Shown here piece after piece: positions 2,928 to 23,831 of a stretch of 64,000 nt of DNA (positions are counted from its first letter, which is position 1; every line of letters starts with the position of its first letter). The notes under the pieces were generated by a model that was not told the DNA's origin, did no database searches, and saw only the letters and a program-made list of their open reading frames with translations. The DNA is from Trypanosoma brucei (taxonomy: Eukaryota): NCBI GenBank assembly GCA_000002445.1, contig CH464491.1, forward strand, positions 3,584,001 to 3,648,000, written 5' to 3'. The translations under genes were made by a program, and so were the position numbers.

Positions 2928-3257
2928 TGACTATTGTTGAAAAAGGAGTGTATTTGTACAACTGATCGTGGTCGCGCTGCACACCCGCGAGAAAGGAAGG
3001 TAAGGGCAACGTGGACATCCAACTTTTTCTGAAAGCAAAGAATTGCGTGAAGAGACACAACTGTTAGGTAACGAACGACACGGTCGGCCCACCCTAGGTG
3101 GCCATTTAAGAAAGAAACTTCGTCACAGAGGGGAGTGAAGAAAAGTATAGGCGGTCCTTGGAACGAGTGAACCATCTATAGTTCGTCTTTACATTGCAAT
3201 CAGCGTAAAAGGTACACGGGTCCTCTCTACAACTTATTTAACTGCTGCAGATGCGCT

Positions 3258-3848
3258 CTATTGCTCATATCCTGAGCTGAAAAACATCTGGCGGAATTCT
3301 AACAGATCGATTGTATCGTTCTCATCAGTTTCGAGGGAGGCAAGGACCTGCTCTGCCGCGACGACTTCATCATCACTTAGCTGAAGAGTTTTTTGCATGC
3401 CTGCAAGCAGCATTGGGATCGACTCACGGGGCATTCTTCCCTCACCGTTCATGTCATACTCATTTAAGACACTTCGAACGATATCATGATCTTCTTGGTC
3501 CGCAGGCAATGTTGTATCCATAACTTCAACGTCACATTGCCCACCCTCTGCGTGGCGGTCTAGAGTCCTGCATTCCCCTTCTTCCTCTATAAACCGCCCA
3601 TCCTTGTCAAAGGGTGCTGCTTGGCCGCAGAGAGCTGCAAAGAAATTGGCGCTGTACTTGTAAAGATCAGCCGGTCTATCCCTGAGGATTGCCTTGGTGT
3701 ACTGCTTCATAATTGTCCCCAACTCCGGGGGAACATTAACTTGTTCCACGCAAAAAATCGACTCCATGGCTGCCTTAACTAAAGCACTTCTTGGGCTTTG
3801 AAAATTAGATGGGAGTAACTGTAGTGAGGAATGAAACATACAACTCAT
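3258..3848 (-). CDS. RIIa (PKA regulatory-subunit dimerisation/docking)-domain protein with a C-terminal EF-hand-like loop. It is probably flagellar.
   Basis: The track ORF 3258..3878 starts on TTG, so I re-anchored to the first in-frame ATG at 3848. The segment PPELGTIMKQYTKAILRDRPADLYKYSANFFAAL fits the RIIa/DPY-30 helix pair. The C-terminal TDENDTIDLLEFRQMF resembles an EF loop. Confidence 0.6.
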   Translation of the reverse strand: MSCMFHSSLQLLPSNFQSPRSALVKAAMESIFCVEQVNVPPELGTIMKQYTKAILRDRPADLYKYSANFFAALCGQAAPFDKDGRFIEEEGECRTLDRHAEGGQCDVEVMDTTLPADQEDHDIVRSVLNEYDMNGEGRMPRESIPMLLAGMQKTLQLSDDEVVAAEQVLASLETDENDTIDLLEFRQMFFSSGYEQ

Positions 3849-4932
3849 GCGTACGTCCCGAAGTGCAATACCATTCAAAAATATGAGTCACGTCGGTAAA
3901 GAAAGTGAGAGAACAGATGACCTTCACCACAGCACTGTGATCGGCCTAATGACATACTAGTACCAGACAAATCATCGCTTTATGCTTTTGCGCGCACTGA
4001 ACGGCGACCGAAACTCGAATTTATACTTGACTTGTCCCCCCCTCAGAACAACCTTACCAAATATTAATGACCGCTCCCGCTTCCATCTATTTTATTTTTT
4101 ATTTTTTGCACACCATTCCCTCCTCCCCGACAGTCACATTACAGTGTTCCTGCGCGAAGCACCCAAGGATGCGATACAAGTGTACGTAGAATTCAGGATA
4201 CATTAATATCAACAAACGCCTTTCCTGGAGGGGAAGAGGGTGCACACATCTCGCGCGAGACTAGGAGACTACCCCCCGTTCGTTATTGTCGGACTACTGG
4301 GGCCACACAGAAAATCCAAAGGTAAACTGTCTGTGATTACGAATGGCGAGGCTAACAAACAAACAAGGGAGGCAGATACGAACCTGCACACAGTTTCCGC
4401 CATTCAGCAAGGCTCCTCGTAACATGTACGGGAGCTAGTTGAGTGGATAAAATGAGTGAGTTAGACCCCACTCCCCTTTTATTTAGTCACACTACGCGTG
4501 GGCCTGCAAAAATGACGTAAAACCAGTTACCGCCATGGGTGCACGTGCAGACAGAAAACACTGCAGGTGTACGGCATCCGAGTGTTTCGCGCCCCGTTGA
4601 GATGGATACTGTCCCGCAGATAGTTTATTCCACAAAACCCATAAAGTTCCAATCGCCTACATTCCCTAGTGAGCCCACCACATGTGAAACAGTGTAACAG
4701 GGCGTAATAAAGAAAGTCTTCAAGGGCGGTGCAGAATAGTGATTCAATTCGAGAAACTGCTTGATAACAGTATTGAAGAAGAGAATTACATATAACAGTG
4801 TAAACGGATGAGAATGCAGTGGGGTATCAAGGGTGTGAAAAACAAAGGCAAACAAAAACAGATAAGAAAGTTTTGAGAAATACGACCTCCAGGTTGTTAA
4901 CCTATGCCACGCAGAGCTGGTGAGCAGCGACA

Positions 4933-7197
4933 CTACTGGGAAAGGTGTGACAAAGTGGCTGCTTGATCTAACACAATTTGCTGTAGGCGTTCTTTGGATG
5001 AGAGGGCTTCTGACAGAGACGCTTGTGCCGCCTCCAACTCGGTCATGCACCTCTCCTTCGTGTCTCTCTCCCTCTGCAGCTGCTCCTGCACGGTTCGAAG
5101 TAAAGACTCCCTTTCTTGAAGGGCCACCTGGGCGGCTTTCACTTCTCCCTGAAGAGAGCTAAATTTTTCATCATGCTCGGATGACAACATTCCCCTTACA
5201 ACCAGGCGAGCGTTCGTATCTTCCAGCTCACGACATCGACGAGAATCTGCCTCGTATGCTGACTGCACGCCTGAAAAGTCGTGTTGTAGCGACTCGTACC
5301 GATGCTGAAGGAGCACACACTCGTTCTCTTTCAAAATGAGCTGCTTGCTAAGCTCAGCAAGGCTTTGTTGCAGCTCATCTGCGGCTCGATCTTTAGCCAA
5401 CGAAACTTGTTGCAATTCTTCGCAAGTTGTCTCTAGTTGAGCCACTCGGGACGTTGACTGCACGAGTTTCCGATGGAGTTGGTCGTTTTCATATTCGTAG
5501 GTCTGCAAATCGAGACAACTCTGTTGATCTCTGCGGTGGAGTTGACTAACTTGTTCCTGCAGGTATATAATGCTTTGCTCCTTAGAAGAAAGCGTTGCAC
5601 GCACTACCTCCAATTCGCGCTCTATCGTCCTCTGAGCATCACGCTGCGATTCAGCCTCCTTCACTGCATTTTGATAGGCCGAAAGAACTTCTTGCAACTC
5701 ACCGTCTTTCGCTTTGAGAGAATATGCAAGTTGAGTTTCATGCCGAAGAAGCCTTTGCTGCTCAGTGACGAGCTTCTCATTCTCGTTCGCTAATTGCCCG
5801 ACTTGTTGATTGCAGTAGTTTTTGTTTGCCACAAGTTGATCCATATCTCTTTGAAATTGCTGTAGTCGCTCCTCCATGCCCTTCTTCTCACGCTCGAAGC
5901 TAAAAGAGGATGCTATCAGCTGCTGTTTCTCATCTTCAACGTTTGCCAACCGAACATGTAGCTCTCGTTCTGACGCCGCGTACTGACTGCACTTTTGCTG
6001 CAGAGATCGCACCTGAAGGGACAGCTTTTCCGCGTCATCACTCAACAATCTCTTATGTTCAGCCTCCTCTTCTAGCCGTTTCTTTGTTACCTCAAGGATG
6101 GAAACGGTCTCTCCGTGGATAGCCGAAATGTCGTCTATACGGCCCCTCAAATCATCACATTCGGCGCACTTAATTTCCAGCATATGTGCCAAACTCTGCA
6201 CAGAATGGGTTGTAGGATCGTTCAACTGGTTGCACGAATCCACTTGACATTCTTTCGCAGCAAGAGGTACGACATCCGTTTGGACCGAAGAAGACACCTG
6301 AGGAAGAGTGTCAGTTTGTGTCTCCGTGTGGACCTTTTGACTACTCATTCCGCTACGTAAGTTAGCGAGCTCCCTGCGAAGCGACGACCTTTCGTCGGAC
6401 AAGACTTGAATGACTTCCTGAAGGCCTTTGATTTGTGCATTACTAACGGTATGTTCCTGCGATGCCACTTGCAGTGCTTCAGATGTCTCGTTTTTCCGCT
6501 CCTTAATAACAGCCTCTAATTTTCGGATTTTTGCCAGGAAATTGTTTTTCTCTATGAGTAAAGAACTTTTTTCTGATAGAGCGGTCGCAAGCTGGCTTTC
6601 AAGAGTTTTTGTTCGAGCAGCCATGTCTTCTCCATCAGCCAAGTGATTCTTCCGTCCTCTCAATTGTTCAGTTAGAAGGCGATTTTCCTTCTCCCGAAGT
6701 TGAAGTTTATCGTTATACTCTATGGTCATTACACGTAGTTCCTCTTTTCCCGCTGCGCGGACGGCGTTAACCTGTTGTTCTAGTCGTTCCACCTCATTGT
6801 GCAGGAAAGTAATTTGTGAAAGTAGATGAGCGGTATTACCGTCCGTTATGCTGTCCGGTTTTGTTTTTCCGTCCCCACTGCGTGATCTGAGATTCGAAAT
6901 TTCCTGTAAGCAAGCAGTGAGGTGTTTGTTCTTGTCGGCAAGTTGGTCCTCAAGTGCTGTAATGATAGCCGGGCTATCAACTTCCGGGGTTTCGTCAATA
7001 AGTTTCTGCCATGCCTTCTCGGGAAATGAGTTCAGACACTTGTTCAGTGTAACACGTTGCTGTCCAAAGCATAGGTCTGGCTTCGTAACGGACATGTGTA
7101 GATAATTTTTAAGCTGAGCAATCTCGACCTCTTGAGCTTCACATTCCACTCTCAAAGCCCGATTTTCGCTCAACACTACTTCATCGGTTGATGCCAT
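4933..7197 (-). CDS. large coiled-coil protein (hypothetical, 754 aa)
   Basis: Uninterrupted ATG ORF. It shows heptad-like E/Q/L/R-rich composition throughout, e.g. LEQQVNAVRAAGKEELRVMTIEYNDKLQLREKENRLLTEQLRGRK. Every plus-strand ORF across it is under 110 aa. Confidence 0.75.
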   Translation of the reverse strand: MASTDEVVLSENRALRVECEAQEVEIAQLKNYLHMSVTKPDLCFGQQRVTLNKCLNSFPEKAWQKLIDETPEVDSPAIITALEDQLADKNKHLTACLQEISNLRSRSGDGKTKPDSITDGNTAHLLSQITFLHNEVERLEQQVNAVRAAGKEELRVMTIEYNDKLQLREKENRLLTEQLRGRKNHLADGEDMAARTKTLESQLATALSEKSSLLIEKNNFLAKIRKLEAVIKERKNETSEALQVASQEHTVSNAQIKGLQEVIQVLSDERSSLRRELANLRSGMSSQKVHTETQTDTLPQVSSSVQTDVVPLAAKECQVDSCNQLNDPTTHSVQSLAHMLEIKCAECDDLRGRIDDISAIHGETVSILEVTKKRLEEEAEHKRLLSDDAEKLSLQVRSLQQKCSQYAASERELHVRLANVEDEKQQLIASSFSFEREKKGMEERLQQFQRDMDQLVANKNYCNQQVGQLANENEKLVTEQQRLLRHETQLAYSLKAKDGELQEVLSAYQNAVKEAESQRDAQRTIERELEVVRATLSSKEQSIIYLQEQVSQLHRRDQQSCLDLQTYEYENDQLHRKLVQSTSRVAQLETTCEELQQVSLAKDRAADELQQSLAELSKQLILKENECVLLQHRYESLQHDFSGVQSAYEADSRRCRELEDTNARLVVRGMLSSEHDEKFSSLQGEVKAAQVALQERESLLRTVQEQLQRERDTKERCMTELEAAQASLSEALSSKERLQQIVLDQAATLSHLSQ

Positions 7198-7401
7198 TCT
7201 ATAAAGCTATTCGCAACGCAAATTGACAAGTGGTTAGAAAAGTGGGTAAACAAGCGGCCATAGCAAAAGAAAAAGCGAATGGAGAAGTATAGCACCAAGT
7301 CAACCACCCCCGTGAAGTGGCGCGCATATTTATTCGATTGAGTCGAACGCACACTGAACGGGAAAGAGACAAAACAAGAGAAAAAATTTGCGTTAGCAGA
7401 G

Positions 7402-7959
7402 TCATCTTTCTTTGTTGAGAAACTCTGCCCGCTGTTTTGCGAACAACTCTTTCTCGAGTTTCTTAATACGCTTATTGTTATAACTCTCTGCCGCTACTAC
7501 CAGTACTGGCACTGTAATTAGGCCTAAACAACATCCACAAGCGAAAACAAGACCAACCTTCGCTGGGATGCGGTTCTTTGGGCTTCTAAAAGCGTACACG
7601 GCAGCAGCAAAACTTCCCACAATAATCCCCGCGTCCAATCCCCGTTGCATTGGTTCACAGGAAAGAAAGAATCGCCACTGCTGTGAAAGCGCTCTTCTCT
7701 TTGCATCCCCGACGTTGAGACCCTCCTGTTCTATTATGTACTGTTTGAGATCCTTGACTTCGGAATCAGGATAAAGCTTACCCCTGTCTCGCTCGTCCTG
7801 AATGGCTGACATCATTTCCAGTGTCTCCTTTTTAGCAACCTTGTACCGCCCACTTCTTATGAGGTCGTCGATATTGGTAGACTCATGCTCGGTTGCTACA
7901 CGGCCTTCCGAACTGATTTCATTTGGCTCTTGTTTCTGGGTGCTCTGAAGGTGACCCAT
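7402..7959 (-). CDS. small membrane protein with two C-terminal transmembrane helices (hypothetical)
   Basis: The track ORF starts on TTG at 8055. The in-frame ATGs are at 8040 and 7959. A pyrimidine tract followed by AG on the minus strand (revcomp of ~7985-8011) lies between them, so I favour 7959 (MGHLQSTQKQEP...). The C-terminus has two hydrophobic helices (GIIVGSFAAAVYAF and VGLVFACGCCLGLITVPVLVVAA) separated by a short basic loop. Confidence 0.55.
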   Translation of the reverse strand: MGHLQSTQKQEPNEISSEGRVATEHESTNIDDLIRSGRYKVAKKETLEMMSAIQDERDRGKLYPDSEVKDLKQYIIEQEGLNVGDAKRRALSQQWRFFLSCEPMQRGLDAGIIVGSFAAAVYAFRSPKNRIPAKVGLVFACGCCLGLITVPVLVVAAESYNNKRIKKLEKELFAKQRAEFLNKER

Positions 7960-8445
7960 AGTACTACGTGACAACGGTAAAAGAAAAAAGAGGAAGATAT
8001 TGCCAATCACAAGGAAGCATGCATCGTGGTGGTAGCACATAAACAACAGTAACAAAAGATGCGCGAGATACCTCTACTCTTAAGAACATAGTATATTCAT
8101 TCGCTGCATGCAGATACTCATCGCCCGCCATTACCTCCCAAAGCATAGTGAACGCATGCACAACATGAGCGGTATTAAACGGCGACGAAAGGGGTTCAAA
8201 TAGCCGCTGATGCTTGTACCAAAACAAACAAGCGTACAATAATGAAATAATGGGGGGAAAACAACCGACGGCATTTTCAATCGCTAAAAACCGTCACGTT
8301 ACAACACGGACTCTTCGTGCACGGTTGTGACAGCTAATATATTATGACATCAAGAGTGGCAGCAAAGATAAGGTAACAGCATCCCAATAAAGTGAGGGGA
8401 AAACGGGGTGATGATGCACCCGCACCGAATATCAAACAATTTACA

Positions 8446-8455
8446 GGGGGGGGGG
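8446..8455 (+). repeat. G10 homopolymer
   Basis: Read directly: acagggggggggggtgtaa. Confidence 0.95.
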
Positions 8456-10909
8456 TGTAATCCCATAGACTCGCATAATGGAAGACACGCTCTAACAAAT
8501 ATATTTCACGTACTGTTGTTACGATACACATGAGAAAAAAATTCGGGGTAGCAGTTCAGGGCAAGCAAAGAGTCGCACGGAATGAGAGAGAATGGGAAAG
8601 AGATATCCCTCGCTACGTATTGGCCGTGCCTTGGCAAACAGGGGCGATGTATCTTTGACAAAACCGGTGAATAGGGGTCCACATCTCATAATCGGCGAAA
8701 CAACGGCCGGGTGCTACAAAATATGAATCACCAGAACAACTATTTGGTCGACGCAACCACTTGTTTATCATACCTTTCGGAGCGGTACAGGAAAATGTTT
8801 CAAGCAGAAAACAGATCCCTTTTTACGCAGAGCAACATATTACTTGCCAAGTGACAAAACAACCACGGCACCACCACCTATTATAAACGATTGATGATTC
8901 ATTAAGCATGATAAACTAAAGTTTTTACTGGTGAAGAATCAATTAACCATTACGTTGCAGCATATGTCGCAAAGCACATAAATGCCCCCATTTACATAAA
9001 TTTCAGGAAAAAAAAACCAACCCTCTCTAGGAACAACCCCCGGTCGTCGAGCCGCCAGCAATTAAACTTATCGCAGGCGGCACCTTCATATTGGAAGGGA
9101 AGGAGACAAACTGATAACCGATAACAACATTACAGGTGTCTGACACAACCCACAAAAAGTAAGCAAACCGTGCGACACAACGATGACAGCACATCGAACA
9201 CAAAAAAGAAAAAAAATAAACACAATCAAAGAGAAGCAAAGGAAACACCGAAAAACATTTGGTGCTCACCAGAGGGGGTTGGTAGAAAAGTAAACAGCCC
9301 CCGAGGTAGCATTTCGCTATTGTCTGCTTAGTATTGAGATAATAACAGTCTTCTAGTAGTGGCTTGTAGGAATAATACGCGCGACGATTCTCTTTCAAAG
9401 TGTTGGCAAGCTAACTCGGTTCCAAAAGAGGACCGAAGGAGCGAATCAACAACGAGGGCAAATTACTTAGAGTATATCCATCTGTCCTGAATCCGACGGT
9501 AAGTCACACATATGCACTTTAAAAGGCTCCTCGAGTATCGGCAGGGGGCTCGGAACGCACTTGCTCTCAACGACCTAACCAATCAGAGACCACGAACTAA
9601 GAAAAAAAAAGGGTGCCACAATAATGTAAAAGAAGCAGATTTGCCAGACCGCTCATTGAGTCGAAAGATATTTGTACCGTTTGCCGTACAGATAGTTCAT
9701 CGGTATCCGACATACTCTTCCGGGATCGCAGCGCATGCATTGCCATCCATTGATAAATCGTAATCGATGCAATCGCCACTAACGGCCGCAATTAAGAGAA
9801 TCAGCTCTCCACTATCTAAACTCTTAAGAACATAACCAACACAGCGTAGACAGCTCCCTCACGGGGACACCGGACCCATATCGAGCATCAATTGACTCCC
9901 ACACACAACCCTATTCACTGTAGCCAACACAGGCATTCCCATATTGACGGACCGCTATGATCGAGTAACATTCTTAACGCCGAAACGGTGAGGCACAACC
10001 CACGAAAATATAAAACAACACCCCCTTAGGAATGAGCCAGCAGGCCTCCGGTGCGAGCGCACAAAAAACCCAACGGAACATCCCCCGAATAACCGGCCGA
10101 ACAGCGGCGTCAACCCGCGGCATCGGGGTCTCTCAACAAAACAAAGGACGCGCCAGCATTCTTCATTTGAGAACCGAGCCCTCCGATACCAAGAAATGGG
10201 AGGCGACCCATGGTCCACCGGGTGGGCACACCAGAGTCTGATCCTGCGATTGAAACCCCCGCCCCGCGTAAGGGATCTCCCCAAGAGGAAGCAAGCGATC
10301 CACAGCAAAGGACAGACTCCTCCAGCCCCACCCCCACACGAGGTGGAGTCGGTGTCCCCCTCCCTACTCCGAAGTAAGTGCAAGCACTCTTCACCGGGGG
10401 AAGAGGGCGGACAGCCGAATGTGGAGCCCTGCCACGGACTAGCCAACAGCACCGAAGGCTACATGACTAGTAGCGCATCTGCACGAGCGGCACCGCACCG
10501 GGTGTTAAAAACTGTAGACCGTATGGGTCGTGGGGGAAAGTGGCACCGCAGGGGCGTAGGGTCCCGTTTTTTCTTCTCGCATTGCGGTGTCAAGCCCTCC
10601 CCTCCATGTGCGCCGCGTTTCTGCAACTGTAGGACCCCCACTGGGCCCGCCGGCGCCACCGGTGCTCGCTATCGGTTGCTTGGTGTGTATGTGTCCTTTC
10701 CCAGTCTTCGCACTTTGGGGTGTTCACGTATGGTTCTGGCGGTGCCGGCTCCGCCGTGGCGGGAACGATCCGCTAGGCGGGCAACGGCGTTGTTGCAGTT
10801 TTGCTACTTGGGTGATGGCGGACCGTCTGTTTGTGTATGAGCGGAAGTTTTTACTCGCGCTAGCGCATTTGGCACACCGCCTTTGGGATGGTCAGAAGTT
10901 TTTGCACGC

Positions 10910-10924
10910 GGGGGGGGGGGGGGG
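10910..10924 (+). repeat. G15 homopolymer inside the GC-rich island of the strand-switch region
   Basis: Read directly: cacgcg then 15 g then atgcg. A C8 run follows at 11088-11095 (tagtcccccccctccc). Confidence 0.95.
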
Positions 10925-12111
10925 ATGCGTTCTGAATTGCACTTTTCCTGTGCATCCGTTGAGGTCGGCTATTTTCAGGGTTGGTTGGTCGTTTGCAACT
11001 TTTGCCATCCGTCGGGTAACAAATTGCCATGTATTTCAGGGAGGTGTGCGAGTCCGAGGATGGTGCGGTGTGTCATGTTGCTGTAGTCCCCCCCCTCCCA
11101 AATGCGGAGGAGCTTGTAGCGTGGAATGAGTTTGCTCAATTTACGTGGTAGCCTTGTTTTTGTGTATCCATATGTAGGGGAGGAGCTGTCAGCAACCCTT
11201 ATGGCCGGAGAGCATACACAGTCAGTACACCGAGGTTGAATGCAGTTGGGGAGCTCTCCGGTTCGATTACAGCGTGGATGCAAGTTGTTGTTTTTGTTCC
11301 CGTGCCCCCATAGTCGTGAAGTTGTGTTGCTCAAGCGCGCTGCGACAGAGTAACTGATGAATCTTTTATTGTACTAAACCTATGTAACCGCCCCTCCTCC
11401 GCAATACACAAAAAAGAGCCACCTTGCAACTAGCTCCGAAAATCGGACTAGCTTTTTTCAGACGTATGCGTTGCCCCACGCTGATACACGGGTTCCGAAT
11501 GCGAGCTATGTCAAGCAACCTTTGTTTAAGTTTGTGGTTGCACCTTTGTAATGCGCCATCGTGGCTATGTGGTTATGCGACCACCTCGCCAGCTGTAGGC
11601 GTCTCCTCTCCCTCATGACCCAAATTTTTGGGATGGAGCGACGGGACGTTGAGTTTTTTTGTTTGCTTAGAAAACATTACTGTACAGCGCTCCACAGAAC
11701 TACGCAGTAGCATCTCCCTGTGGCTGAAGATATCAATTTAGCCGTTAGTGTAAGGTTGGAACCTCAGGTGTTTTGTTATCACGTTTCGGTTCCTTGCGCC
11801 GAGAATTTCCGCGAGTAGAGGTGCCGGTTGTGAATATTTTGTTGCGTAGTTCTATCTTACTGCCTTATCCACATGCTTTAACAGCAGCACCCTAGTGCAA
11901 AGCGAAGTAGGATTTGTGCGCCCCTGAGACAGTGCAGCACGATATGACATTCATTTGTGAAGGTGATGTGGAGGAGAAACCAACAGGTTCCAGTATCGCA
12001 ACCTCTCATATCGGGTGCCAGCAGTTTTGAAAGAACCACCACTGCTGCTGCCATCGGATGTTGTAGACTTCCTATTTGTAAGTGAAGGTGCGGTTTGTTC
12101 GTTTCCCCTAC

Positions 12112-12127
12112 TTTTTTTTTTTTTTAG
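12112..12127 (+). promoter_or_regulatory. T14 polypyrimidine tract plus AG. It is the probable SL trans-splice acceptor for ODC.
   Basis: cttttttttttttttttag at about 155 nt upstream of the ODC ATG. This is the classic trypanosomatid acceptor context. Confidence 0.5.
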
Positions 12128-12282
12128 AGACCGCGGGGAGGGCTTTCCTTGCTTCCCAGAAATATTATGTTTAAACACGCATGTGCGTCGGTAGCAAGCC
12201 TGGTAAAATTTGTCTGTACCATTTCCAATGAAGCGGTAGGGAAAGAGGCGGTACTGGGGAGGGATTAAGCAGTAAGGCAAAT

Positions 12283-13620
12283 ATGACCACCAAATCAACC
12301 CCCTCTTCTCTCTCTGTGAATTGTCTTGTAGCACAAACGGAGAAATCTATGGACATTGTCGTGAACGATGACTTGAGTTGTCGCTTTCTTGAAGGGTTTA
12401 ATACGAGGGATGCCCTCTGTAAAAAGATCAGTATGAATACGTGTGACGAAGGTGATCCGTTTTTTGTTGCCGATCTCGGGGACATTGTAAGGAAGCACGA
12501 AACATGGAAAAAATGCCTTCCCCGCGTCACGCCGTTTTACGCGGTCAAATGCAACGATGACTGGCGCGTACTTGGAACGCTGGCGGCTCTCGGCACGGGA
12601 TTTGATTGTGCTAGCAACACTGAGATACAACGTGTGAGAGGCATTGGTGTGCCACCGGAAAAAATAATATATGCGAACCCTTGTAAACAAAATTCACACA
12701 TACGGTACGCGCGTGATAGCGGCGTTGATGTCATGACATTTGATTGCGTGGATGAACTGGAAAAGGTCGCTAAAACGCATCCAAAGGCAAAGATGGTATT
12801 AAGAATTTCTACGGATGATTCGTTGGCTCGATGCCGTCTCAGTGTGAAGTTTGGTGCAAAGGTGGAAGACTGTAGGTTTATCTTGGAGCAGGCAAAGAAA
12901 CTGAATATCGACGTCACTGGTGTGAGTTTTCACGTGGGAAGCGGATCTACAGATGCCTCTACCTTCGCTCAAGCCATATCTGACTCCCGTTTCGTTTTCG
13001 ACATGGGTACTGAGCTTGGGTTCAATATGCACATTCTTGATATCGGTGGTGGGTTTCCAGGGACGAGGGATGCACCACTTAAATTTGAAGAGATTGCTGG
13101 TGTCATCAACAATGCGCTGGAAAAACATTTTCCACCTGACCTCAAGCTTACCATTGTTGCCGAGCCGGGAAGGTACTACGTTGCTTCAGCTTTCACACTT
13201 GCCGTAAATGTTATTGCCAAGAAGGTGACACCAGGGGTTCAGACCGACGTCGGTGCCCATGCTGAATCAAACGCACAGAGTTTTATGTATTATGTGAATG
13301 ATGGCGTGTATGGTTCATTTAATTGCATCCTGTATGACCACGCAGTCGTCAGGCCTTTGCCCCAGAGGGAGCCAATCCCCAATGAAAAGCTCTATCCCTC
13401 AAGTGTATGGGGTCCCACATGTGATGGTCTTGATCAGATAGTTGAACGATACTATCTTCCCGAGATGCAAGTGGGGGAATGGCTGCTCTTTGAGGATATG
13501 GGTGCCTACACGGTCGTAGGAACTTCTTCCTTTAATGGATTCCAGAGTCCGACTATTTACTATGTAGTCTCCGGGCTACCAGACCATGTTGTCCGGGAGT
13601 TGAAAAGTCAAAAATCATAA
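12283..13620 (+). CDS. ODC: ornithine decarboxylase (PLP-dependent, alanine-racemase fold)
   Basis: 445-aa ATG ORF. It is essentially identical, as far as I can recall, to the published T. brucei ODC ([26 protein letters not shown] ... PFYAVKCND ... [35 protein letters not shown] ... [16 protein letters not shown]). It includes the ~20-aa N-terminal extension, and an alternative internal ATG sits at 12349. It has the PLP-binding lysine motif (FYAVKCN) and the CDG active-site motif. Confidence 0.95.
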
Positions 13621-14763
13621 ATGGAAGCGAAGGTGCATAATACGGGCCCAGCTCGTTGGGTCTCTGAGCAATGAAAGAAGGGGCTTTACCACCAGGTGTT
13701 GCTTCCTTTGGTAATATATTTGGTCTGTTCTTGACCCTGCTGTTAGCTTTTTGCCCTTTGTGAGCTTAACGACTCAACTATCAGCGACTACATCTCACAA
13801 GTCATATGTCCATGACTCCCCCAAAATAGGCTCCGTGAGGGCCCTGTGACGGGGGTACATTGAAGCCTCTGGAGTTGTTGAGAGACAGAAGACAGTCGTG
13901 TGTGTTTGTGTGAGGGAGTGATTAGTGGAAAATTCAATGAACAGAGGAAAATAGGGAGCAAGTTTTTGGTATTGATAGGGATGCTTGTAATGGTAACTTT
14001 TTACTTAATTTTTTGAGTTGTACGTGACTGAATGCAGGCAACAGTTTACTGGTAGTTGCGTTTTTCCTTTCAGTTGTGCAGTTGGACATTCAAATGTCGA
14101 GCACTTTTCTGTTGTTTGACAACCCATCTTCATTTTCCCTGTGGTGTAGCATATTGCAACTGGCCGCATAGACAAGGTGGGAAAGGTATAGGTCTCAACA
14201 TCTTTAGTTTAGGCTTCTGCTTATTTGTTATAATTTTGATTAATGTGGTGTGGGGAGTGCCCCGAAAAAAAAAAAAACGAAAAACATTGTATTGTACGTT
14301 CTGTAAAGGCACGACAACGTAAGTGGGCCTCTGGGAGCTGGAAACGGGGGTTGCGGCCAAGCTGTGGCTTCACGTATTGGTCGGTGGAAGCTGCTTTCCG
14401 TAGTGTAGCTGACTTCATTCACGAAGGAAGGGGATCATAATAATGTATGTTGACCATCCTCCCTTCGGTGGTGAGCTGTTTGGCTATCCCGTAGCTATCG
14501 AAACGAGTAGGGAACAATTATTAGAGTCGTGTCAAATCGTTTTCCGTAGTGCCACAAACGAGAGAAGTGGGTGCGGAAGTGTTCGGAATAGGTGAGCAGA
14601 CAACGACCTTCCTCCGCTCGACCGCTTGATATGTTGTCAAACGTGGTCGATCGGTGGGAAAAGAGATGGTTCACCTTTCTTGGGAGGAGATGCGTTTCAC
14701 GATTTTTCTTAGCATTGTCCTGTCGCCTAATGATACGTCCTAACGTAGTGGAGTGTGTGTATA

Positions 14764-14775
14764 GGGGGGGGGGGG
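14764..14775 (+). repeat. G12 homopolymer in the ODC-GRESAG4 intergenic region
   Basis: Read directly: gtatag, then 12 g, then cggctgccgcg. Confidence 0.9.
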
Positions 14776-16638
14776 CGGCTGCCGCGCTGTGTGAACTGGC
14801 CGCAATGGTATCTTCCATTAGGTTAGATCTACGGAGTGAGTGACCCGAAGAGCCTGACATGGGCATGAAGCGCTCGCAAACTAGGTGTCGATGATTGTTT
14901 TCCCCTGCCGAGTCCGGTTGTCCGATTATACAAGAATTTTGACGTTATGAGGGCAAAGACGGAACCCATTTATTGGGCGGAACGCTCTTGTAGGATGATT
15001 CCACCTTGCTTGCGAAGGGATGATCTTCTTCGCATAGTGGGTACAGTGGCCGTTGCTTTTTATTTGAGCTGACATTTCGATATTACCGTTTCCAGGGCGC
15101 ACCACCTTGATTCACGATTGCGTAAAGGTGAGTGCGCAGACTCTTTTGTCCATCCTTTTTAGCGGTGCGAAGTCTAGTAATAATTTAAATACCCCTTCGA
15201 TACGTGTGTATGATCTTCCCCTTTCACCAACTGAGTGTTTAGGAACTAAGCACTGGGTATTGGAGTAAAGAAGCGCGTGTACGGGTGCCACTGTGCTGTA
15301 CTGTATCTGCGCAAGCTGGTTATTTTCCACGGGGAGGAGCCTTTGACGCGTGGGCTGTGCCAGCCAACGGCCACCTTCCTGGATTATTTCGTTGGGGCAT
15401 CATCATTGGAAATTTATTTGGATCACATCAACTCTGACAATCCTACCCATGCTCCGGGAGCCTATGCGAGCGGTCTTTCTTACGTTACCTCTGCACATAT
15501 TTTGTCATCCGTTAGGTGTCTAGCTTCATATAACATTTGAGGGTACATTCCTCTGTCTCAGATGTCATTGTCACTCATCCCTTTGATCAGCATGGGGAGG
15601 TGTTGGAGCTCGGATGGCGATTGAAGAGGGAATAGCGCGCGTTCTCCATGCGCAGATGGAGGTAATGGGCCAAGAAAATTTGAGTGTGCGTAATTTCTTG
15701 TGACCTTCTAACCAAGGGACGGTGTGCTCCCTGGAGCCACTGGGGCTTACTTTCTGCACTTCATGCAGGCTTATACCACACGTTCTGGAACGGGGGTTGC
15801 CTCGCCTTCATGAGGTGGTAGCTATCCTTTCGCTCGGTAGTCATGGGGCTGATTCCTATTTCTTCACGCGCTAACTGCCGAAATTAGAACTGTTATGACA
15901 AACTGGAGTGGCCGCGACAAGATGCTTTCTACAGGATTCAATGGAGTATCTTGACTTCGTGCGAGCTACGTCCACTTACTTCCAAACACACCGAAACAGC
16001 AGAGTCTGAACCAGCAATTCGGTGTTGCGCGCGTGTGTGGGAGGAAACGGCGTGTGGATTCGTGTTGCCACTTTTATGAGATGGGGATTGTATGTAACGT
16101 AACAACACTAAATATGCGATGCCGAAAACTGGGGATGAGCGACTCAGTCACGAAGACCACAGAAGTATTCAGTTGGGAGCGGGGGCTCATTTCTCAACCA
16201 AACTATATTCTCCAGGTCGCGACTCAGTAGGTGACAGTATAAGGGGCCTTATTCGTCTTTTGGTATTCCTACTGGACGTGATGCTTGCTTTTGTGTAGCC
16301 TGTGGTGTCATCCCTCCCATGTGACAGCAGGAATGAGATGCCGCAAATCGTGTTGGACTCCCGTCTTTTTGTAATTAACTCGCTGCGGCCCCCACACGGG
16401 ACTCCGCATCGCAGCATGAACCGATGCCTGAGCTTCGGTCCTCTTCAGTCGATCGGCGCACTGCCACAGGAAAATTTTGCTTTATCATTCCTAACACCGC
16501 TTTGTCTCTCAGTTCGTAATCTGCTCTCCGTTTCAAACCTGTTTTCTGAAGGACATACACGTAGGCAACAACGAAAACGATTACAAAAGTACCTCAGTGA
16601 AAGAGTTTCCGAGTGGTGCTATTTATACTTGCGGGGAG

Positions 16639-19600
16639 ATGACCACCACGAAGGCTTCGTGTCTTATATCCAGTGACAGTGCCCTTCGCCGAAATTCCAT
16701 TGTCGCCACGGCACCATTGCTGCTGCTACTGGCGCTAACGTTGCCTGTCGGTAATGGGGAGGTCACGCAAGTGAACGTCCTATCTCTCATGTACACCACT
16801 GAATTTCCCGTGGAGGACGCCGTTTTATTTGATAAAGGACTTAACGTTTCATTAATGGCGCGCCGTTTGGAGCTCAAGGGGCAAGTGAAAGTTGAGTTTA
16901 TTCGTCCTGCAGCACCTAACTCTCCAATAGATGTCGCAATCGAGCAGGGTGCTCAGCAGAGTGTAGGCAAACTATTGCTTGTTCTTGGTCCGCTGGGCGA
17001 CGATAACATCCAAATATTTAAAGGTGCGATGGAAGAGCATGAGTTAGTCGCCTTTACCCCTATTGCCACTTCAAGTGAGGGCTACGGCTGGGATCCTCAT
17101 CTCTACTACTTGACTGTTGGGCCGGATGCCGAGCTGATGGCTCTCGTTCGCTACGCTGTTGGTGTGTTGGGTCTTCAGCGGGTAGGCGTGATGTACGTGA
17201 AAGATACGTCGTTCAGCAGGAAATCATTTGAGTTCGTGGAGAAGCTGATGATGAGGATGGGTCACAACATAAGTTGCGTGTTCGCCCCAGAAAGTGGCTT
17301 CTCTTCTGCAGGTAATAAGGTCTCTTTGGACTCGGAATGGGAGCAATTCGCCGCTGCACTTCCACAGGCGATACTGTTGCTTGGTCCGCGCGGCCGCGAT
17401 AGTAGATGGTTTGTCATGCGGGTAGCAGAGGACAATCGGACATCGCGCTCACATTTGCTTGCGCAGTCAGGGTTACAGAGCTTTTTGCTGAAGACATGGT
17501 GCGAAGCATTGGAGGCGACGGGCGCTGAGTTTAGGACTGGACAGGTGATCTTCTCAGGGACGAATCCTCTGGCATGCGACACAGAGTACAAGGCGGTACA
17601 ACGGTTTATCGATGAAACAAAAAGGTATCTAGGAAACGAGGAGGAGGGGAGTGAGGACGCAGGGGCGGGAGGCCTCTCCAATGATACTGGGGGAGAGATG
17701 ATGATGCTTGGTTGGATGACTGGTGAGGTCATTTCTGCGGCACTGGGCAACAGTAGGGTTGTGAGCAACCGCACAGCTTTTATGGAATCCTTATATTATC
17801 AACGTCGTTACGTAGTAGATGACCTCGTGATCGGTGATTACGGCAACGAATGTGGGGAGGAGGCAATTCGGCAGGGTGCTGTCTGCCGCTGCAACCAGGG
17901 TGGAAGTATGGTTTACATGAAGGAAATGGTTAGTAAGACCCTGCTAAGGCCAGTGACTGCGGGTTATGTGACTTTAGGTATGTCGCGGTGCTCGAGGGAA
18001 TCTTTGCAACTTAATGCGCCTTTAAATGCTCTTCTTCTGCTTATGCAGGACGATGACGTTGCGCTAAGAGCAAACGTGGATTGGGACGTTGGCGCATCTG
18101 CTAGTGTGGGGAACGGGCACCTCACCGTGCATGACAGACTGTTTTTACACTCTTTCCTTGCGACATCAGACGCCGCCGCCAGTATTCTGCAGCAGCTGCT
18201 CAGTGTCAGGATTGTGTCGGCTGTGTTTGGTGTCGTCAGCGACGACATGCTCGAAATAGAGGGTATGACTTTCTTCGATCCGATAACAACTACTCCCCGT
18301 CTAACTAAGCCGAGGAAAAATGTTATTTACCTCTCTCCCACGATGGAACAGCAACTTTATGTGCTTGCAGAGTACCTTTACAGCAATCCGCCCCCGAGTG
18401 TCAAAGCCATCATACGGAGCAAGGAGGCTTCCGAAATTTCAAAGCTGCTGAGAAAGACGCTTCTAACGTTTGATGCCCCTTTGAGCCCCGCAGACATCCT
18501 TGATGATGATGATGAATTGGGCGACTACCTTCCGACGGAGGGAGATGTAATGGTCATCGGCCTCACCAAGTCTGATGTGGGGACGATCGCGGAGCACCTC
18601 GAGACTTTTGAGGAGAGTCGGGTGTTTTTGATCTTCTCTGAATTAGCGTTGCTGTTTGAGGAGTTGAGAGCGGCATTCAGGAACAAAGCGTCCGCCCATC
18701 GCCTCGTGTTTGCTACCAACTTACCCCACTGGGCGGAAATCGAAATGCCAACGGACCGAGTAGATAATCTTAATTCTGTCGTCCCAGATCGGTCACTGTG
18801 GTCTCCCATGGCGTTGCTCGGTTTCGTCACCGGACGGTTGATGGAGTCAATTTTGGAGCGCATGGAGAACGTGAACCCTGGACTACTGGCGGATTTATTC
18901 TTCAAGGAGAGCCTCATTACTGTCGACGGAATGTGGTACGGACCGTACACTGATGATTGTGATATCGGCAAACCAATTGAAGGAAACCACTGCATCCATA
19001 ATTATGGAGCCACGCATATATCCGTGTGGTCGATGGCCCGTGTACTGAGATCGGACGTTCCACTGCTACAAAATCCCACAACACCATCGATGGAATACAT
19101 CGACCCCGACGCTATTGTATTGACTGGTGCGGCCATCGCTGGCATTGGCATTGCTGTGTTCGCCTCCTTGTTGCTCCTCGCCGCGCTTGGGGCCTTATTA
19201 TACTTTACGATGAACAGAACCCGTGACAACGCCAGTGCGCCGAAGGAGCCGATGGAGCCCGTCACGATCATCTTTACTGACATTGAAAGCAGCACTGCTA
19301 TATGGGCTGCACACCCTGAGCTGATGCCCGATGCCGTTGCCGCTCACCACCGCGTAATCCGCCGCTTGATTGAAAAATACGACTGCTACGAGGTGAAAAC
19401 CGTTGGCGACTCGTTCATGATTGCTTGCAAAGGTGCGTACCCGGCCGCGCGGCTCGTGTGGGAGCTCCAAGTATCGTTCTTGAATCATGATTGGGGAACA
19501 GGCGTGTTTGATGAGATTTATCGTGACGCTGAAAGGGAGAGGCGGTCAGAGGACCGTGAATACAACCCACCAACTGCATATCTGGACTCCGAAGTGTACA

Positions 19601-20283
19601 GTCGTTTGTGGAATGGCCTGCGTGTACGTGTTGGAATCCACACCGGATTGTGCGACATCCGACGCGATGAGGTAACGAAGGGTTACGACTACTACGGCCA
19701 GACAACAAATATGGCTGCGCGGACGGAGAGCGTGGCAAATGGCGGTCAGGTGCTGATGACGCGTGGGACGTACTTTTCGCTTAGCTCAACTGAGCGTCAA
19801 GAGTTTGGTGTCACGTCTCTCGGCTTGGTTCCGCTCCGCGGTGTGCCCGAACCCGTGGAGATGTACCAGTTGGATGCCGTTGCCGGCCGTGTCTTTGCCC
19901 CGCTACGCTTTGATAGAGAAGCCTGTTGCGAGCAGGAGGACGGGACTAGCACTTCCGCCAGTGACCACGGCTCCACAGTGGCCGAGCTAAGTGAATCAGC
20001 TCAGTGGGTTGTTGCTTCTTTGCGGGCTGTGCTTCGCGCATTCAGCACATCTCAGCGCCAAAAACTGCTTATGCCCATTTGTGAGCGTTGGAACGTGTCG
20101 ATACCGCGAAAACCTCTGCCCATGTGGGGTGAAGAACACTGTGAGGCGATTATGCGGTCTATCGGGGCAAAGATTGGCTCCGTCGTGGACCACCCCGCCG
20201 CAACTGACGCCACGATGACGGGGAGCACTGTGACAAATGATTCGGTGATATTCATATCCGGAAACCCCGAAGCGCAGCGGTGA
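16639..20283 (+). CDS. GRESAG4: receptor-type adenylate cyclase (GRESAG4 family). It has an extracellular periplasmic-binding-protein-like domain, a single TM, and a class III cyclase catalytic domain.
   Basis: The track ORF starts on GTG at 16597, and the first in-frame ATG is at 16639 (MTTTKASCLISS...). The N-terminal signal peptide is ATAPLLLLLALTLPVGNG. The TM helix is TGAAIAGIGIAVFASLLLLAALGALLYF. The catalytic core is VTIIFTDIESSTAIWAAHPELMPDAVAAHHRVIRRLIEKYDCYEVKTVGDSFMIACK ... YGQTTNMAARTES, which is typical of trypanosome GRESAG4/ESAG4 cyclases. Confidence 0.9.
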   Translation: MTTTKASCLISSDSALRRNSIVATAPLLLLLALTLPVGNGEVTQVNVLSLMYTTEFPVEDAVLFDKGLNVSLMARRLELKGQVKVEFIRPAAPNSPIDVAIEQGAQQSVGKLLLVLGPLGDDNIQIFKGAMEEHELVAFTPIATSSEGYGWDPHLYYLTVGPDAELMALVRYAVGVLGLQRVGVMYVKDTSFSRKSFEFVEKLMMRMGHNISCVFAPESGFSSAGNKVSLDSEWEQFAAALPQAILLLGPRGRDSRWFVMRVAEDNRTSRSHLLAQSGLQSFLLKTWCEALEATGAEFRTGQVIFSGTNPLACDTEYKAVQRFIDETKRYLGNEEEGSEDAGAGGLSNDTGGEMMMLGWMTGEVISAALGNSRVVSNRTAFMESLYYQRRYVVDDLVIGDYGNECGEEAIRQGAVCRCNQGGSMVYMKEMVSKTLLRPVTAGYVTLGMSRCSRESLQLNAPLNALLLLMQDDDVALRANVDWDVGASASVGNGHLTVHDRLFLHSFLATSDAAASILQQLLSVRIVSAVFGVVSDDMLEIEGMTFFDPITTTPRLTKPRKNVIYLSPTMEQQLYVLAEYLYSNPPPSVKAIIRSKEASEISKLLRKTLLTFDAPLSPADILDDDDELGDYLPTEGDVMVIGLTKSDVGTIAEHLETFEESRVFLIFSELALLFEELRAAFRNKASAHRLVFATNLPHWAEIEMPTDRVDNLNSVVPDRSLWSPMALLGFVTGRLMESILERMENVNPGLLADLFFKESLITVDGMWYGPYTDDCDIGKPIEGNHCIHNYGATHISVWSMARVLRSDVPLLQNPTTPSMEYIDPDAIVLTGAAIAGIGIAVFASLLLLAALGALLYFTMNRTRDNASAPKEPMEPVTIIFTDIESSTAIWAAHPELMPDAVAAHHRVIRRLIEKYDCYEVKTVGDSFMIACKGAYPAARLVWELQVSFLNHDWGTGVFDEIYRDAERERRSEDREYNPPTAYLDSEVYSRLWNGLRVRVGIHTGLCDIRRDEVTKGYDYYGQTTNMAARTESVANGGQVLMTRGTYFSLSSTERQEFGVTSLGLVPLRGVPEPVEMYQLDAVAGRVFAPLRFDREACCEQEDGTSTSASDHGSTVAELSESAQWVVASLRAVLRAFSTSQRQKLLMPICERWNVSIPRKPLPMWGEEHCEAIMRSIGAKIGSVVDHPAATDATMTGSTVTNDSVIFISGNPEAQR

Positions 20284-23200
20284 AAACCACTCCACGAACT
20301 AATGACAGGGGAAGGAATCGTGAGGTAAGCCCATTTAGGGGCCTACCGATGTAGGGCAGTGTAGTTAATAGAATGCTATTACTTTTCCCCCAGACTTTTG
20401 AAAACGCTTACGGTGACGGCGTGTGATTTGTTTTAAACCAGTTTTCGCTAATAATTTTGTCACTGCGCCGCTCAGGGATGTGAGATTGTATACTGTGTGG
20501 CGTACCCCTTCGGCAGTGGCAATAAGCGTTCGACCTTCACCCGTGACCGCAGACTGTCGCGCCGGTGGAATATGTGATTTTTTGTTTTTCTTCCTTCCTT
20601 TCTTTCTTTTTTTTTTTCCTGAGCGTACGCGATTTACTCCATACGGCGGCAACTTTTTCCTTATTTATATGCATATATATATAAATCGTACCCTAAAGTT
20701 GTGCACGTGCTATTTGCATATATTTGTTTTTTTGTCATTGGTCTTCCAGCGGTGAATACGCGTTTACACCTTTAACGTGCAAAGATTGCATGCCTAACTC
20801 TGTGTCAAACGTGTTATCGCAGGGAACACTCCTTCTTGGTACCAAACACTTTCGTGTGTTGGGGCGTATCGCCGCGTACCTTCCATGCACCGCTCATATC
20901 TCGGGGCATTGTTATTTTTTAAAGACATCGATCGTATGACTTTAGTGAGTGTTATGACTTTCGTTTTTCTCGAGCTTCCGTGTTTACCTCCTGCCGTTGT
21001 CGTTATTTTTGACATTTGTTTCACTAATTCTCCTATTATTATGTTACATGGGTTAGCCCAGCTGCGAGAGCCACCGCGCCCTCGCTACAATTTCTTCTCC
21101 CGCTTCTCGGCTGCCCATCCACCAAGCAAAACCTATCGAGCAATATGAAGTGGGTGTGTACCATGCTAAGTTTGTTGTTCGGTTTCGCGGCGCTGCAGCC
21201 CCTAGTTTCTCTGATCCTCTTTAAGTTTCAGCAGGCCTTCTCCCTTCACTCCTTAGGCACCTGTATTATAGTTTGTCGCACGGCAACGGCAGTTGTGTAT
21301 ACGCTGCCGTCGTAATCGGTGCACGTTATCACTGGGTGTGGTGTATCCGGCCAATCTTGCATGTTAGGGTGCATTATCCCGTATTAGTTCCCATGGTGTT
21401 TAGTAAGTGAAGCAACGCAAGCACCATTGTTTCAGCCGAGCTGCTGGGGACGATTATGTCTTGGCCCTTGTGGAACACTTATGTTTTAAACGTTTTTAAT
21501 ACGAGGCAACGTAAGTATTCGTACCCCAAGAGAAACCTCGTTGCCCACCAGTCAGTTTTTTCCTCGGCGAAGTAGTGAACGCATCCCCCATCCTGTCGAC
21601 AATGCTTGTGGAGAGGCCCACTCATAATTGTGTGATGACGCGCAGTGCCTTCGTATTGATGTCTTCACTGGTGCGGGCGGGGCCGATTCTCAAGGTCCGA
21701 GGGTCACTAAGCTATTCAGCACGTATTGTGGGCTCTTTTTTCTCCCCACTGAGCTGCGTGAAACGCCTGCAACCCCGCACGGCTATAATATCAACCCCAT
21801 GACGTAGAGCAGCCTGCGGGAGGAGTCTTTTCGCGTTTTTGCGTATGGCAGTTGAGCCACCCGTGACGAAGCTGTGTCTGACCCAGGAAATGCGATTTAG
21901 CCTTCGGTCGAGGGAGTTCACTGTGGTTATGAACGGTACTGATCCAAAAACTGACCTCCGCGTTGCCCCGCAGGTCATGGAAATAGTTTCTAGCCATGTG
22001 TTGCTAACTGTATAAGGAGTGTTCCACCAAACCAGTTAGGTGGGGTTATATTTTGCATTGACTTAGTGCCACGATGATTTACACATGATCCGCCGATTCG
22101 GACGTTCTTGTATAGTTTGCATGCCTCCGCTTCTTTTTGTTTCTTCACCATATTTCACCAAACAGCTGTGTCACAGCATTTGCTGTTGAGTGTTTGGAGC
22201 CCTGACTGTTCTGGCTCAAGTAAGTTGTCGAGTTGATGCTTCAGGTTCCTTACAATCATCCTTTCCATTAGCTTGCAGAGGGCACTCATAGGGTCAGTGG
22301 CCGGGACGATGCGCCTTTGTTGCGTGTTCGTTTGGCTGAAGGGTTGGTATTATAACGTCCCTTCTCCTCTGTTCTAGCATTTTGCACGCTTCATACGGTG
22401 CTTAAGCATCCCTAGTAAGCATTCTCTCCTGGAACCACGGCCACTGTACATAAATTGGCCTGGTGCTAACTTCGGTTCTCCCAGGGTAAACCGTTTGGGT
22501 TCACAATTCCTCATGCTTGGTTGTTTCGTCCTTGAAGCTTCTGCCGTCATTGTCAACCCCTTCCTGCACATTTCCAGAATCACGTCCTCTTAACTTTGTC
22601 AATGGGTGTGCATTAACAACTGCTACTGTACTGGTCGATGGCCTCGTTGCAAGCACCGCATTCACTAGGTCGCAGCTTTCGGGTTCTGTGATCCCTGCTC
22701 CCAGTGTTGTTTTCCTTCATTTGACGGTCGTTTCTGTAACCACACCTCTAATTTTGTGTATCTTCGCTAGCTTTCCCCCTTTCCCTCTCTTTTAACATTC
22801 CTTTTCCCTATCTTCTGGGAGCCTGCGGAAGGAATGGTCAAGCCTTTACGCACTGTCAGGTAAGATAAAATAACCATTATAATCCTTGTTTTCGTATCAC
22901 ACCTAAGATAAGTATCGCAAAGAGTGAGTTTTTAAAACGCCCACCCAACCCAACTGTCACCGCCTCCGCACCAGAGCCGGGTAAGGTCATTTCCAGCACT
23001 TTCCTTATCGTCGGTAAATTTACTTCCATATATTTGAGGACTCGCATTTACCAACAATACCCTTTCCCCAACGATGCAAACGATGGATATGATAGCCACG
23101 ACAAAGGTTGAAATTATTAAGTTTCCCGCTCTTTTTCTTCCATTTAACGCAGAAAGACAGGGTAAAGATAATTCAGATTTGTTAGTTCCTACGTCCGGAA

Positions 23201-23796: not shown

Positions 23797-23831
23797 TGGA
23801 ATACCCCCTCCACAAAAGAGAGGGGGTATTC
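23797..23831. repeat. perfect 13-bp inverted repeat (hairpin) with a 9-nt spacer
   Basis: ggaataccccctc cacaaaaga gagggggtattcc. The arms are exact reverse complements. Confidence 0.9.

Follow-up and report, generated by a model that had tools for sequence, protein, structure and literature searches.

Ornithine decarboxylase (ODC) of Trypanosoma brucei, the target of the licensed sleeping-sickness drug eflornithine, is encoded by the first expressed gene to the right of a divergent strand-switch region and belongs, in the best reading of the evidence, to the vertebrate ODC family and not to the kinetoplastid type. The gene was analysed in a 64,000-nucleotide (nt) window of chromosome 11 of strain TREU927 (Tb927_11_01_v4, 3,584,001-3,648,000), in which it occupies the plus-strand open reading frame (ORF) 12283-13620. 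The enzyme starts at the second in-frame ATG of this ORF, and the gene forms, together with a receptor adenylate cyclase, a two-gene transcription unit bracketed by two start regions. The overall explanation combines the expression scheme described below with an ancient gene transfer from the vertebrate lineage and a lineage-specific occupant of the switch region, and it is very probably correct. Earlier publications already cover the gene, its correct start, its place at the head of the unit, the hypothesis of transfer and the tendency of switch regions to collect lineage-specific genes. The contribution of this analysis is limited to the combination of these elements and a hint of an empty site in T. 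vivax.

Identification of the ODC gene

Subtraction of 3,584,000 converts published coordinates to window positions. This offset is valid because all eight of the eight published spliced-leader sites directly follow an AG located after a pyrimidine tract. The published coordinates of ODC (Tb11.01.5300) are 3596283-3597620 (Kolev et al. 2010). The corresponding ORF has 445 codons and is Tb927.11.13730. Residues 21-445 of its translation match the T. brucei ODC crystal sequences 1njj, 1f3t and 2tod (E ~1e-296), and N137 versus I is the sole difference from the crystallised enzyme. The translation contains the pyridoxal phosphate (PLP)-lysine motif PFYAVKCN and the active-site motif GPTCDGLD. The Pfam domains PF02784 and PF00278 (Orn/DAP/Arg decarboxylase N- and C-terminal domains) were precomputed for a protein of 100% identity and for the identical 423-amino-acid (aa) product of T. 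equiperdum. An exact look-up of the 445-aa product returned no record, and the 423-aa product is on record. The locus is the known T. brucei ODC locus, and its product presumably has the ornithine decarboxylase activity established for the crystallised, characterised T. brucei enzyme, whose PDB entries are so named.

Translation start of ODC

The original prediction described an ORF with a spliced-leader acceptor upstream of it, formed by a T14 run and an AG, and with another ATG in the same frame at 12349, 22 codons further on, from which the protein reads MDIVVNDD. All of these elements are present where they were placed, but the use of the T14-AG as the acceptor and the retained N-terminal extension do not hold. 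A pure 17-nt pyrimidine tract occupies 12299-12315, inside the ORF, and the first AG after it lies 14 nt on, at 12330-12331. ODC is listed by Kolev et al. 2010 (Table S1, PMC2936537) among the ORFs with a misannotated start and an acceptor inside the ORF, with a transcript at 3596332-3598059, which corresponds to window positions 12332-14059. The tract, the first AG and the mapped junction therefore coincide, and the published 5' end is 12332. The 5' untranslated region is 17 nt long (12332-12348), and the first ATG of the mRNA is 12349. The main mRNA does not contain ATG 12283, because the mapped spliced-leader site falls inside the supposed extension, and the extension is the splice signal itself in translation, since 12330-12331 is the first AG past the tract. 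Comparison with the mouse enzyme leads to the same start. Residues 5-419 of mouse ODC (7odc_A) align with ORF residues 27-439, so that Met1 of the mouse protein faces the Met encoded at 12349. T. brucei ODC is listed as 423 aa (PMC9149861), and the T. equiperdum annotation gives the same length.

In the opposing model, the transcript is spliced at the T14-AG (12126-12127) and translated from ATG 12283 into a 445-aa enzyme with a real N-terminal extension of 22 residues. The reading frame is indeed open from 12283, and the T14-AG is a plausible acceptor, as a T11-AG of the same form is in use at 25403. The original gene description of 1987 reportedly used the long ORF. However, the mapped transcript begins at 12332, ODC belongs to the published set of misannotated starts, and the pyrimidine tract and acceptor AG are encoded within the extension. 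Splicing at the T14-AG would also put three ATGs (12167, 12181 and 12228) upstream of ATG 12283, whereas the Met at 12349 aligns with mouse Met1 and annotations now give 423 aa. The long form is consequently very improbable. The T14-AG is a signal in the sequence with no junction reported for it, the claim of a retained extension of 20-22 codons is contradicted by the published acceptor inside it and by the 423-aa gene models, and the choice between the two ATGs falls on 12349.

The list of 532 T. brucei ORFs whose start is misannotated (Kolev et al. 2010) includes ODC as a typical case with no difference from the class. RSP11 (Tb11.01.5260, 3258-3848, minus strand) and the gene of a 185-aa protein (Tb11.01.5280, 7402-8040, minus strand) are likewise in this list. 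Their long ORFs overshoot the real starts, as their spliced-leader sites lie at 3818 and 7963.

Origin of the ODC protein

Beyond T. brucei itself, the best 119 matches of ODC among 5.8 billion proteins were all animal ODCs, almost all of them vertebrate, with identities of 58-66%. In a 50%-identity library, T. brucei ODC fell into a cluster whose representative was a bird ODC (596 bits). Single-domain clusters came next with 400-456 bits, and those with names were ODCs of a tardigrade, a bivalve, a beetle and a bee. Antizyme inhibitors 1 and 2 were more distant in the library matches. No named kinetoplastid ODC was found among the best matches, in which only about 20 of 150 representatives carried a name, and ODC of T. 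congolense or T. vivax was not among the best 120 or best 150 matches. A neighbour-joining tree with a simple distance correction was calculated from 404 aligned columns, without kinetoplastid, cyclostome or invertebrate-chordate sequences. The sister group of T. brucei ODC consisted only of vertebrate members of the ODC family in 198 of 200 bootstraps. Jawed-vertebrate ODC1 was monophyletic to the exclusion of T. brucei in all 100 bootstraps examined for this point. The vertebrate affinity of ODC put forward in the original prediction is therefore real.

Published data point in the same direction. The global identity of T. brucei ODC is 24.5% to the L. donovani enzyme against 59.7% to the human enzyme (PMC9149861). 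T. cruzi and T. grayi are without ODC according to the literature, which agrees with the original prediction with regard to T. cruzi. The transfer hypothesis itself was published by Steglich & Schaeffer 2006. In the passages of PMC4413820 that deal with that work, salivarian ODC is the sister of vertebrate ODC and was regained after a loss in Trypanosoma, the donor is an ancient chordate and not a present-day host, and the transfer took place before the salivarian radiation. The best reading of these data is an ancient transfer from a donor of the vertebrate lineage into the ancestors of African trypanosomes, after loss of the native enzyme.

Vertical inheritance would mean that T. brucei kept an ancestral eukaryote-type ODC, that the Leishmania enzyme is merely divergent and that no transfer occurred. 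It would agree with the composition of the gene, as the GC content (0.472), the GC content at third codon positions (GC3, 0.472) and the codon-usage divergence (0.047) of ODC are within the range of its neighbours. It would, however, predict a roughly equal distance to all animals, whereas vertebrate ODC1 scores about 600 bits with 64-66% identity and invertebrate animal ODCs score 400-456 bits with 49-54%. The bootstrap grouping with the vertebrate family and the lack of ODC in T. cruzi and T. grayi also contradict it, and vertical inheritance is extremely improbable. No foreign composition or codon usage was detected in ODC, which is to be expected if the transfer is ancient.

A tetrapod or mammalian donor is not supported by the tree. 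T. brucei ODC joined tetrapods or mammals in none of 100 bootstraps and had none of five mammal- or amniote-specific residues, a small number of sites. It is slightly nearer to tetrapods than rate differences alone predict, in a relative-distance test that is thin. The signature and distance tests are too thin to be used.

The strand-switch region and the first gene of the unit

From about 9500 to 11500, AT skew changes sign (+0.30 to -0.24) on the two sides of a GC-rich island with a GC content of 0.54-0.59. According to the ORF map, Pfam matches and skew, the minus strand carries every convincing gene on the left side (the 185-aa gene, a 754-aa coiled-coil protein, RSP11 and an LRR protein) and the plus strand carries every one on the right side (ODC, adenylate cyclase, Rab, CDC50, profilin, a DEAD-box helicase and others). 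The region is thus a divergent strand switch. On its left side, the transcript of the 185-aa gene starts at 3591963 (Kolev Table S1, PMC2936537), with the AG and the pyrimidine tract confirmed in the window; by identifier (ID) arithmetic this gene, Tb11.01.5280, is Tb927.11.13710.

The original prediction took ODC to be the first gene after the switch, and this is correct for expressed genes. From the 185-aa gene to ODC, ORFs occur only within the GC-rich island, and they have no Pfam match and a flat GC content over the codon positions. One of them, Tb11.01.5290, is still called a gene in the T. equiperdum annotation and is recorded as having "no detectable transcript" (Kolev Table S2, PMC2936537). 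No novel transcript is reported in 8040-12283 (Table S7 of the same study). In Table S14, ODC is the first annotated ORF of a "Divergent" RNA polymerase II (Pol II) unit, the units on both sides of the switch are typed "Divergent", and the assignment of start sites rests on 5'-triphosphate RNA sequencing (PMC2936537). The first-in-unit status of ODC was therefore public in a supplementary table of 2010; the supplements of Nilsson 2010 do not list ODC. With approximately 200 units in Table S14 versus about 8,960 mRNAs, the chance that a random gene heads its unit would be about 2%.

No tRNA or Rfam RNA gene in the window accounts for either of the two start regions. Runs of G are present in or near the switch region (G15 at 10910-10924, G10 at 8446-8455 and G12 at 14764-14775), as is a C8 run at 11088-11095. 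G runs are a reported feature of T. brucei start regions.

The two-gene ODC unit and its expression

The last ORF of the ODC unit is Tb11.01.5310, the receptor adenylate cyclase (Kolev Table S14, PMC2936537), and the unit therefore contains only two genes, ODC and ACP5. Two novel transcripts, Tb11.NT.167 and Tb11.NT.168, lie between them; they have no plus-strand ORF longer than 90 aa and are possibly non-coding. The next unit, from Tb11.01.5320 to Tb11.01.6250, is typed "Internal" (Table S14). A second GC-rich island, about 23500-24800, is the likely site of this internal start region, its exact position being deduced from composition only. Self-BLAST of the window revealed no repeat common to the two islands, and thus no sign of a duplicated promoter. 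A start region therefore lies on each side of the two-gene unit of ODC and the cyclase. The original prediction that ODC heads its polycistron holds for the first position, but the unit is only two genes long and the Rab array has an internal start of its own. The coordinates of these features are given in Table 1.

The transcript map on which the following scheme is based is established in the literature. Very probably, Pol II initiates in both directions in the GC-rich core of the divergent switch region, and the rightward transcript reaches ODC first. The 17-nt pyrimidine tract directs addition of the spliced leader after AG 12330-12331, so that ATG 12283 and the following 22 codons are discarded with the upstream RNA. 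The mRNA 12332-14059 is then translated from ATG 12349 into the 423-aa enzyme. The unit comprises ODC, two transcripts of unassigned role and one receptor adenylate cyclase, after which a separate internal start region heads the conserved Rab/CDC50/profilin array.

An A13 run is located at 14265-14277, about 650 nt past the ODC stop codon, and is the only run of at least 10 A residues in 8000-26000. It is tempting to regard it as a fossil poly(A) tail, but after so long a time it is almost certainly due to chance.

Table 1. Features of the ODC locus and the adjoining strand-switch region (window positions)
Feature	Positions	Strand	Basis or remark
First gene of leftward array, conserved 185-aa protein starting MGHLQ	7402-7959	-	Tb11.01.5280; spliced-leader site 7963
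Divergent strand-switch region, 4.4 kb between the two first spliced-leader sites	7964-12331		Skew flip, GC peak; no expressed gene
GC-rich core, GC up to 0.59, presumed broad bidirectional Pol II start zone	9950-11350		Composition; Kolev Table S14
Spurious annotated ORF Tb11.01.5290, 214 aa, inside GC-rich core	10196-10840	+	No Pfam match; GC1=GC2=GC3 ~0.62
T14 run plus AG, proposed acceptor	12112-12127	+	T14 12112-12125, AG 12126-12127; not the mapped primary acceptor
Stretch of 22 in-frame codons before the real start ("N-terminal extension")	12283-12348	+	Tract 12299-12315, AG 12330-12331, 5' untranslated region 12332-12348
Mature ODC mRNA, spliced-leader site to poly(A) site	12332-14059	+	Kolev Table S1
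ODC coding sequence	12349-13620	+	423 aa plus stop, Tb927.11.13730, starts MDIVVNDD
Novel transcript Tb11.NT.167	14150-15398	+	Kolev Table S7; acceptor signal confirmed
Novel transcript Tb11.NT.168	15516-16446	+	Kolev Table S7; acceptor signal confirmed
Receptor-type adenylate cyclase ACP5, Tb927.11.13740	16639-20283	+	Pfam PF25493, PF25495, PF00211; name from PMC8384185 supplement
Second GC-rich island, GC 0.56, likely "Internal" start region	23500-24800	+	Composition; 3 kb past adenylate cyclase
Rab GTPase Tb927.11.13750 / Tb11.01.5320	25983-26579	+	First of conserved Rab/263-aa/CDC50/profilin array; orthologue table PMC8384185

Synteny across the switch region in other trypanosomes

A chimeric query of three kinetoplastid-specific neighbours matched only the orthologues of the 754-aa protein. 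The leftward array, composed of the 188-aa, 753-aa, EF-hand/RSP11, LRR and 1630-aa genes, is kept in T. vivax, T. cruzi, T. theileri, T. grayi and T. rangeli. Orthologues of the 185-aa gene with 57-78% identity occupy the same position in these five species. Across the orthologous switch region, no ODC was found within 10 kb in T. vivax, T. cruzi or T. theileri, and when the distal flank of the switch in six other loci was compared with the window by tblastx, only the 185-aa gene was matched. T. cruzi has DGF-1 or RHS genes there, differing by haplotype. T. theileri has a 447-aa ORF without known identity and GP63 genes. In T. grayi and T. rangeli, the contigs stop at the switch region itself. 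T. vivax has a GC-rich island 3-6 kb from its 189-aa gene, followed by 3 kb of opposite skew without ODC. Members of lineage-specific multigene families were located across the switch at 1767-3974 of locus L003, 6331-7680 of L004 and 671-6668 of L006.

Gene order was also read from the numbering of gene IDs, not from sequence, in T. vivax and T. congolense. In T. vivax, two IDs (1114540 and 1114550) lie between TvY486_1114530 (= Tb927.11.13690) and TvY486_1114560 (= Rab) (PMC8384185). They suffice only for the 754-aa and 189-aa genes, so that no room is left for ODC or the cyclase. In T. congolense, cyclase 001004400 adjoins Rab 001004500 (PMC8384185), and the three IDs between 001004000 and the cyclase leave, by ID arithmetic only, exactly room for ODC. 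A kinetoplastid-like phylogeny with ODC at the syntenic position in all kinetoplastids was not seen, since ODC is missing from this position in the trypanosomes other than T. brucei that could be inspected.

Other genes of the leftward array differ between species. A 341-aa gene heads the array in T. cruzi, T. theileri, T. grayi and T. rangeli; in T. grayi it has weak or faint matches to TPT and EamA transporters. A TPT transporter gene of 304-322 aa follows the 753-aa gene in T. cruzi, T. theileri and T. grayi. These 341-aa and TPT genes have the coordinates 8053-9078 and 12504-13472 in L004, 7934-8962 in L006, 65-1090 in L007 and 354-1379 in L008. Both are absent from T. brucei (window 1-10000) and T. 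vivax (L001), where tblastn found no remnant. On the Rab side, the CDC50-profilin pair seems to be in tandem duplicate in T. vivax (TvY486_1114580/1114590 and 1114600/1114610) according to orthogroup membership (PMC8384185 supplement); in the window the pair is single-copy (27933-29968).

Position of ODC at the array head

Strand-switch regions have been called "incubators of novelty" that "often harbour species-specific genes", in a passage of PMC4413820 that cites Peacock 2007 and Jackson 2009. The switch region studied here is a hot-spot of lineage-specific gene turnover, and it fits the view expressed in that passage: T. brucei has ODC and the cyclase there, T. cruzi has DGF-1 or RHS genes, and T. 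theileri has GP63 genes. As a detail that is not set out in the published work consulted, the ODC-cyclase pair forms its own two-gene unit between the divergent and internal starts. In the best reading, the pair was added in a lineage-specific manner to a switch region whose lineage-specific genes differ in each trypanosome examined. The original prediction regarded an array head as the least disruptive site for an insertion. This argument is reasonable, since a newcomer would be transcribed by the bidirectional start zone and would need only a pyrimidine tract and an AG, and the position of ODC is compatible with it. The original site of integration does not follow from it, and the switch region may at most be inferred to be the place of first integration.

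There is nearly an even chance that the position at the array head is secondary or coincidental. ODC would then have been acquired elsewhere and moved, perhaps together with the cyclase, or would have been inserted only in the lineage of T. brucei and T. congolense, and either way its position would be uninformative about the original transfer event. T. vivax apparently has the Rab array directly across the switch, without ODC or the cyclase, and the salivarian passages of PMC4413820 date the transfer before the salivarian radiation. The turnover at the switch, where T. cruzi has DGF-1/RHS genes and T. theileri has GP63 genes, and the membership of the adjoining cyclase in a mobile, expanded family also suit a secondary position. 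In contrast, ODC of T. vivax was not located, so that T. vivax may equally well have lost or relocated it, and the first place in a unit falls to a random gene only about 2% of the time. The apparently empty site in T. vivax argues for a later arrival or relocation of ODC after the T. vivax split, or for secondary loss or movement in T. vivax.

Several points weigh against the overall explanation of vertebrate transfer, expression from ATG 12349 and lineage-specific occupation of the switch. The placement of T. brucei ODC relative to the antizyme-inhibitor paralogues splits 42-46% against 22-31%, and the long T. brucei branch could be misplaced in a simple neighbour-joining tree without kinetoplastid ODC. 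The lack of foreign composition in ODC is neutral for an ancient transfer. The empty site in T. vivax relies on consecutive IDs in a synteny-scaffolded assembly, and a second T. vivax assembly was viewed over 10 kb, ending 3 kb past the GC-rich island. T. vivax ODC was found neither among the best 120 or 150 database matches nor in the listed part of the gene-ID tables, and the ODC position in T. congolense comes from ID arithmetic only. As to expression, the transcript map covers procyclic forms only and trans-splicing is heterogeneous (Kolev et al. 2010, PMC2936537), and a T11-AG is used at 25403. Minor splicing at the T14-AG or other upstream acceptors is therefore possible, and rare translation from 12283 may occur.

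Comparison with other ODC systems

Vertebrate ODC1 (human and mouse; PDB 2oo0 and 7odc) has the same fold and the same two domains, PF02784 and PF00278, as T. brucei ODC, with 58-66% identity. The proteins align collinearly from the initiator Met onwards and have the PLP-lysine and active-site cysteine motifs in common. The genes differ in structure, as T. brucei ODC is one uninterrupted ORF with a trans-spliced mRNA, unlike ODC1 of vertebrates, whose ODC1 genes have introns. The mouse and human enzymes have 461 aa with a C-terminal tail, whereas T. brucei ODC is without this tail, its ORF stopping a few residues past the last aligned position. The vertebrate tail is a degradation signal, and its absence results in a stable enzyme, which explains the selectivity of eflornithine.

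Leishmania ODC (LmjF.12.0280 / LdBPK_120105.1, 707 aa) has the same activity and the same role in the synthesis of polyamines and trypanothione (PMC9149861). It differs in its low global identity of 24.5%, in an N-terminal extension of about 250 aa and, by gene ID, in its chromosome (PMC9149861), and the nearest relative of T. brucei ODC is another one. A PDB entry of 727 aa named "ornithine decarboxylase" (9fos_A) matched T. brucei ODC with E = 4e-89, versus 7e-186 for human ODC; judged from its length, it may be a Leishmania-type enzyme. With respect to the hypothesis of Steglich & Schaeffer 2006, as it is presented in the relevant passages of PMC4413820, the present re-analysis agrees in that T. 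brucei ODC is sister to vertebrate ODC and lies within animals, without nesting in any living vertebrate group.

Significance of the locus

The vertebrate-like origin of ODC is a textbook example of gene transfer from host to parasite. In a genome with almost no gene-specific promoters, the question of where an acquired gene can land and be expressed is a genuine one, and switch regions provide ready-made bidirectional transcription. A more specific history, in which an ODC-cyclase cassette landed in an ancestral bidirectional promoter, is unlikely on present evidence. The ancestral arrangement, with the 189-aa gene to the left and the Rab array to the right of the switch, would still be seen in T. 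vivax, and the cassette would have split the promoter into the divergent start (about 10000-11300) and the internal start (about 23500-24800). If this were true, ODC would have reached the site only after T. vivax branched off. The transfer would then be later than the tree suggests, with the basal placement as a long-branch artefact, or ODC would have been relocated. Some internal Pol II starts of trypanosomes would, in that case, be scars of gene insertion into switch regions.

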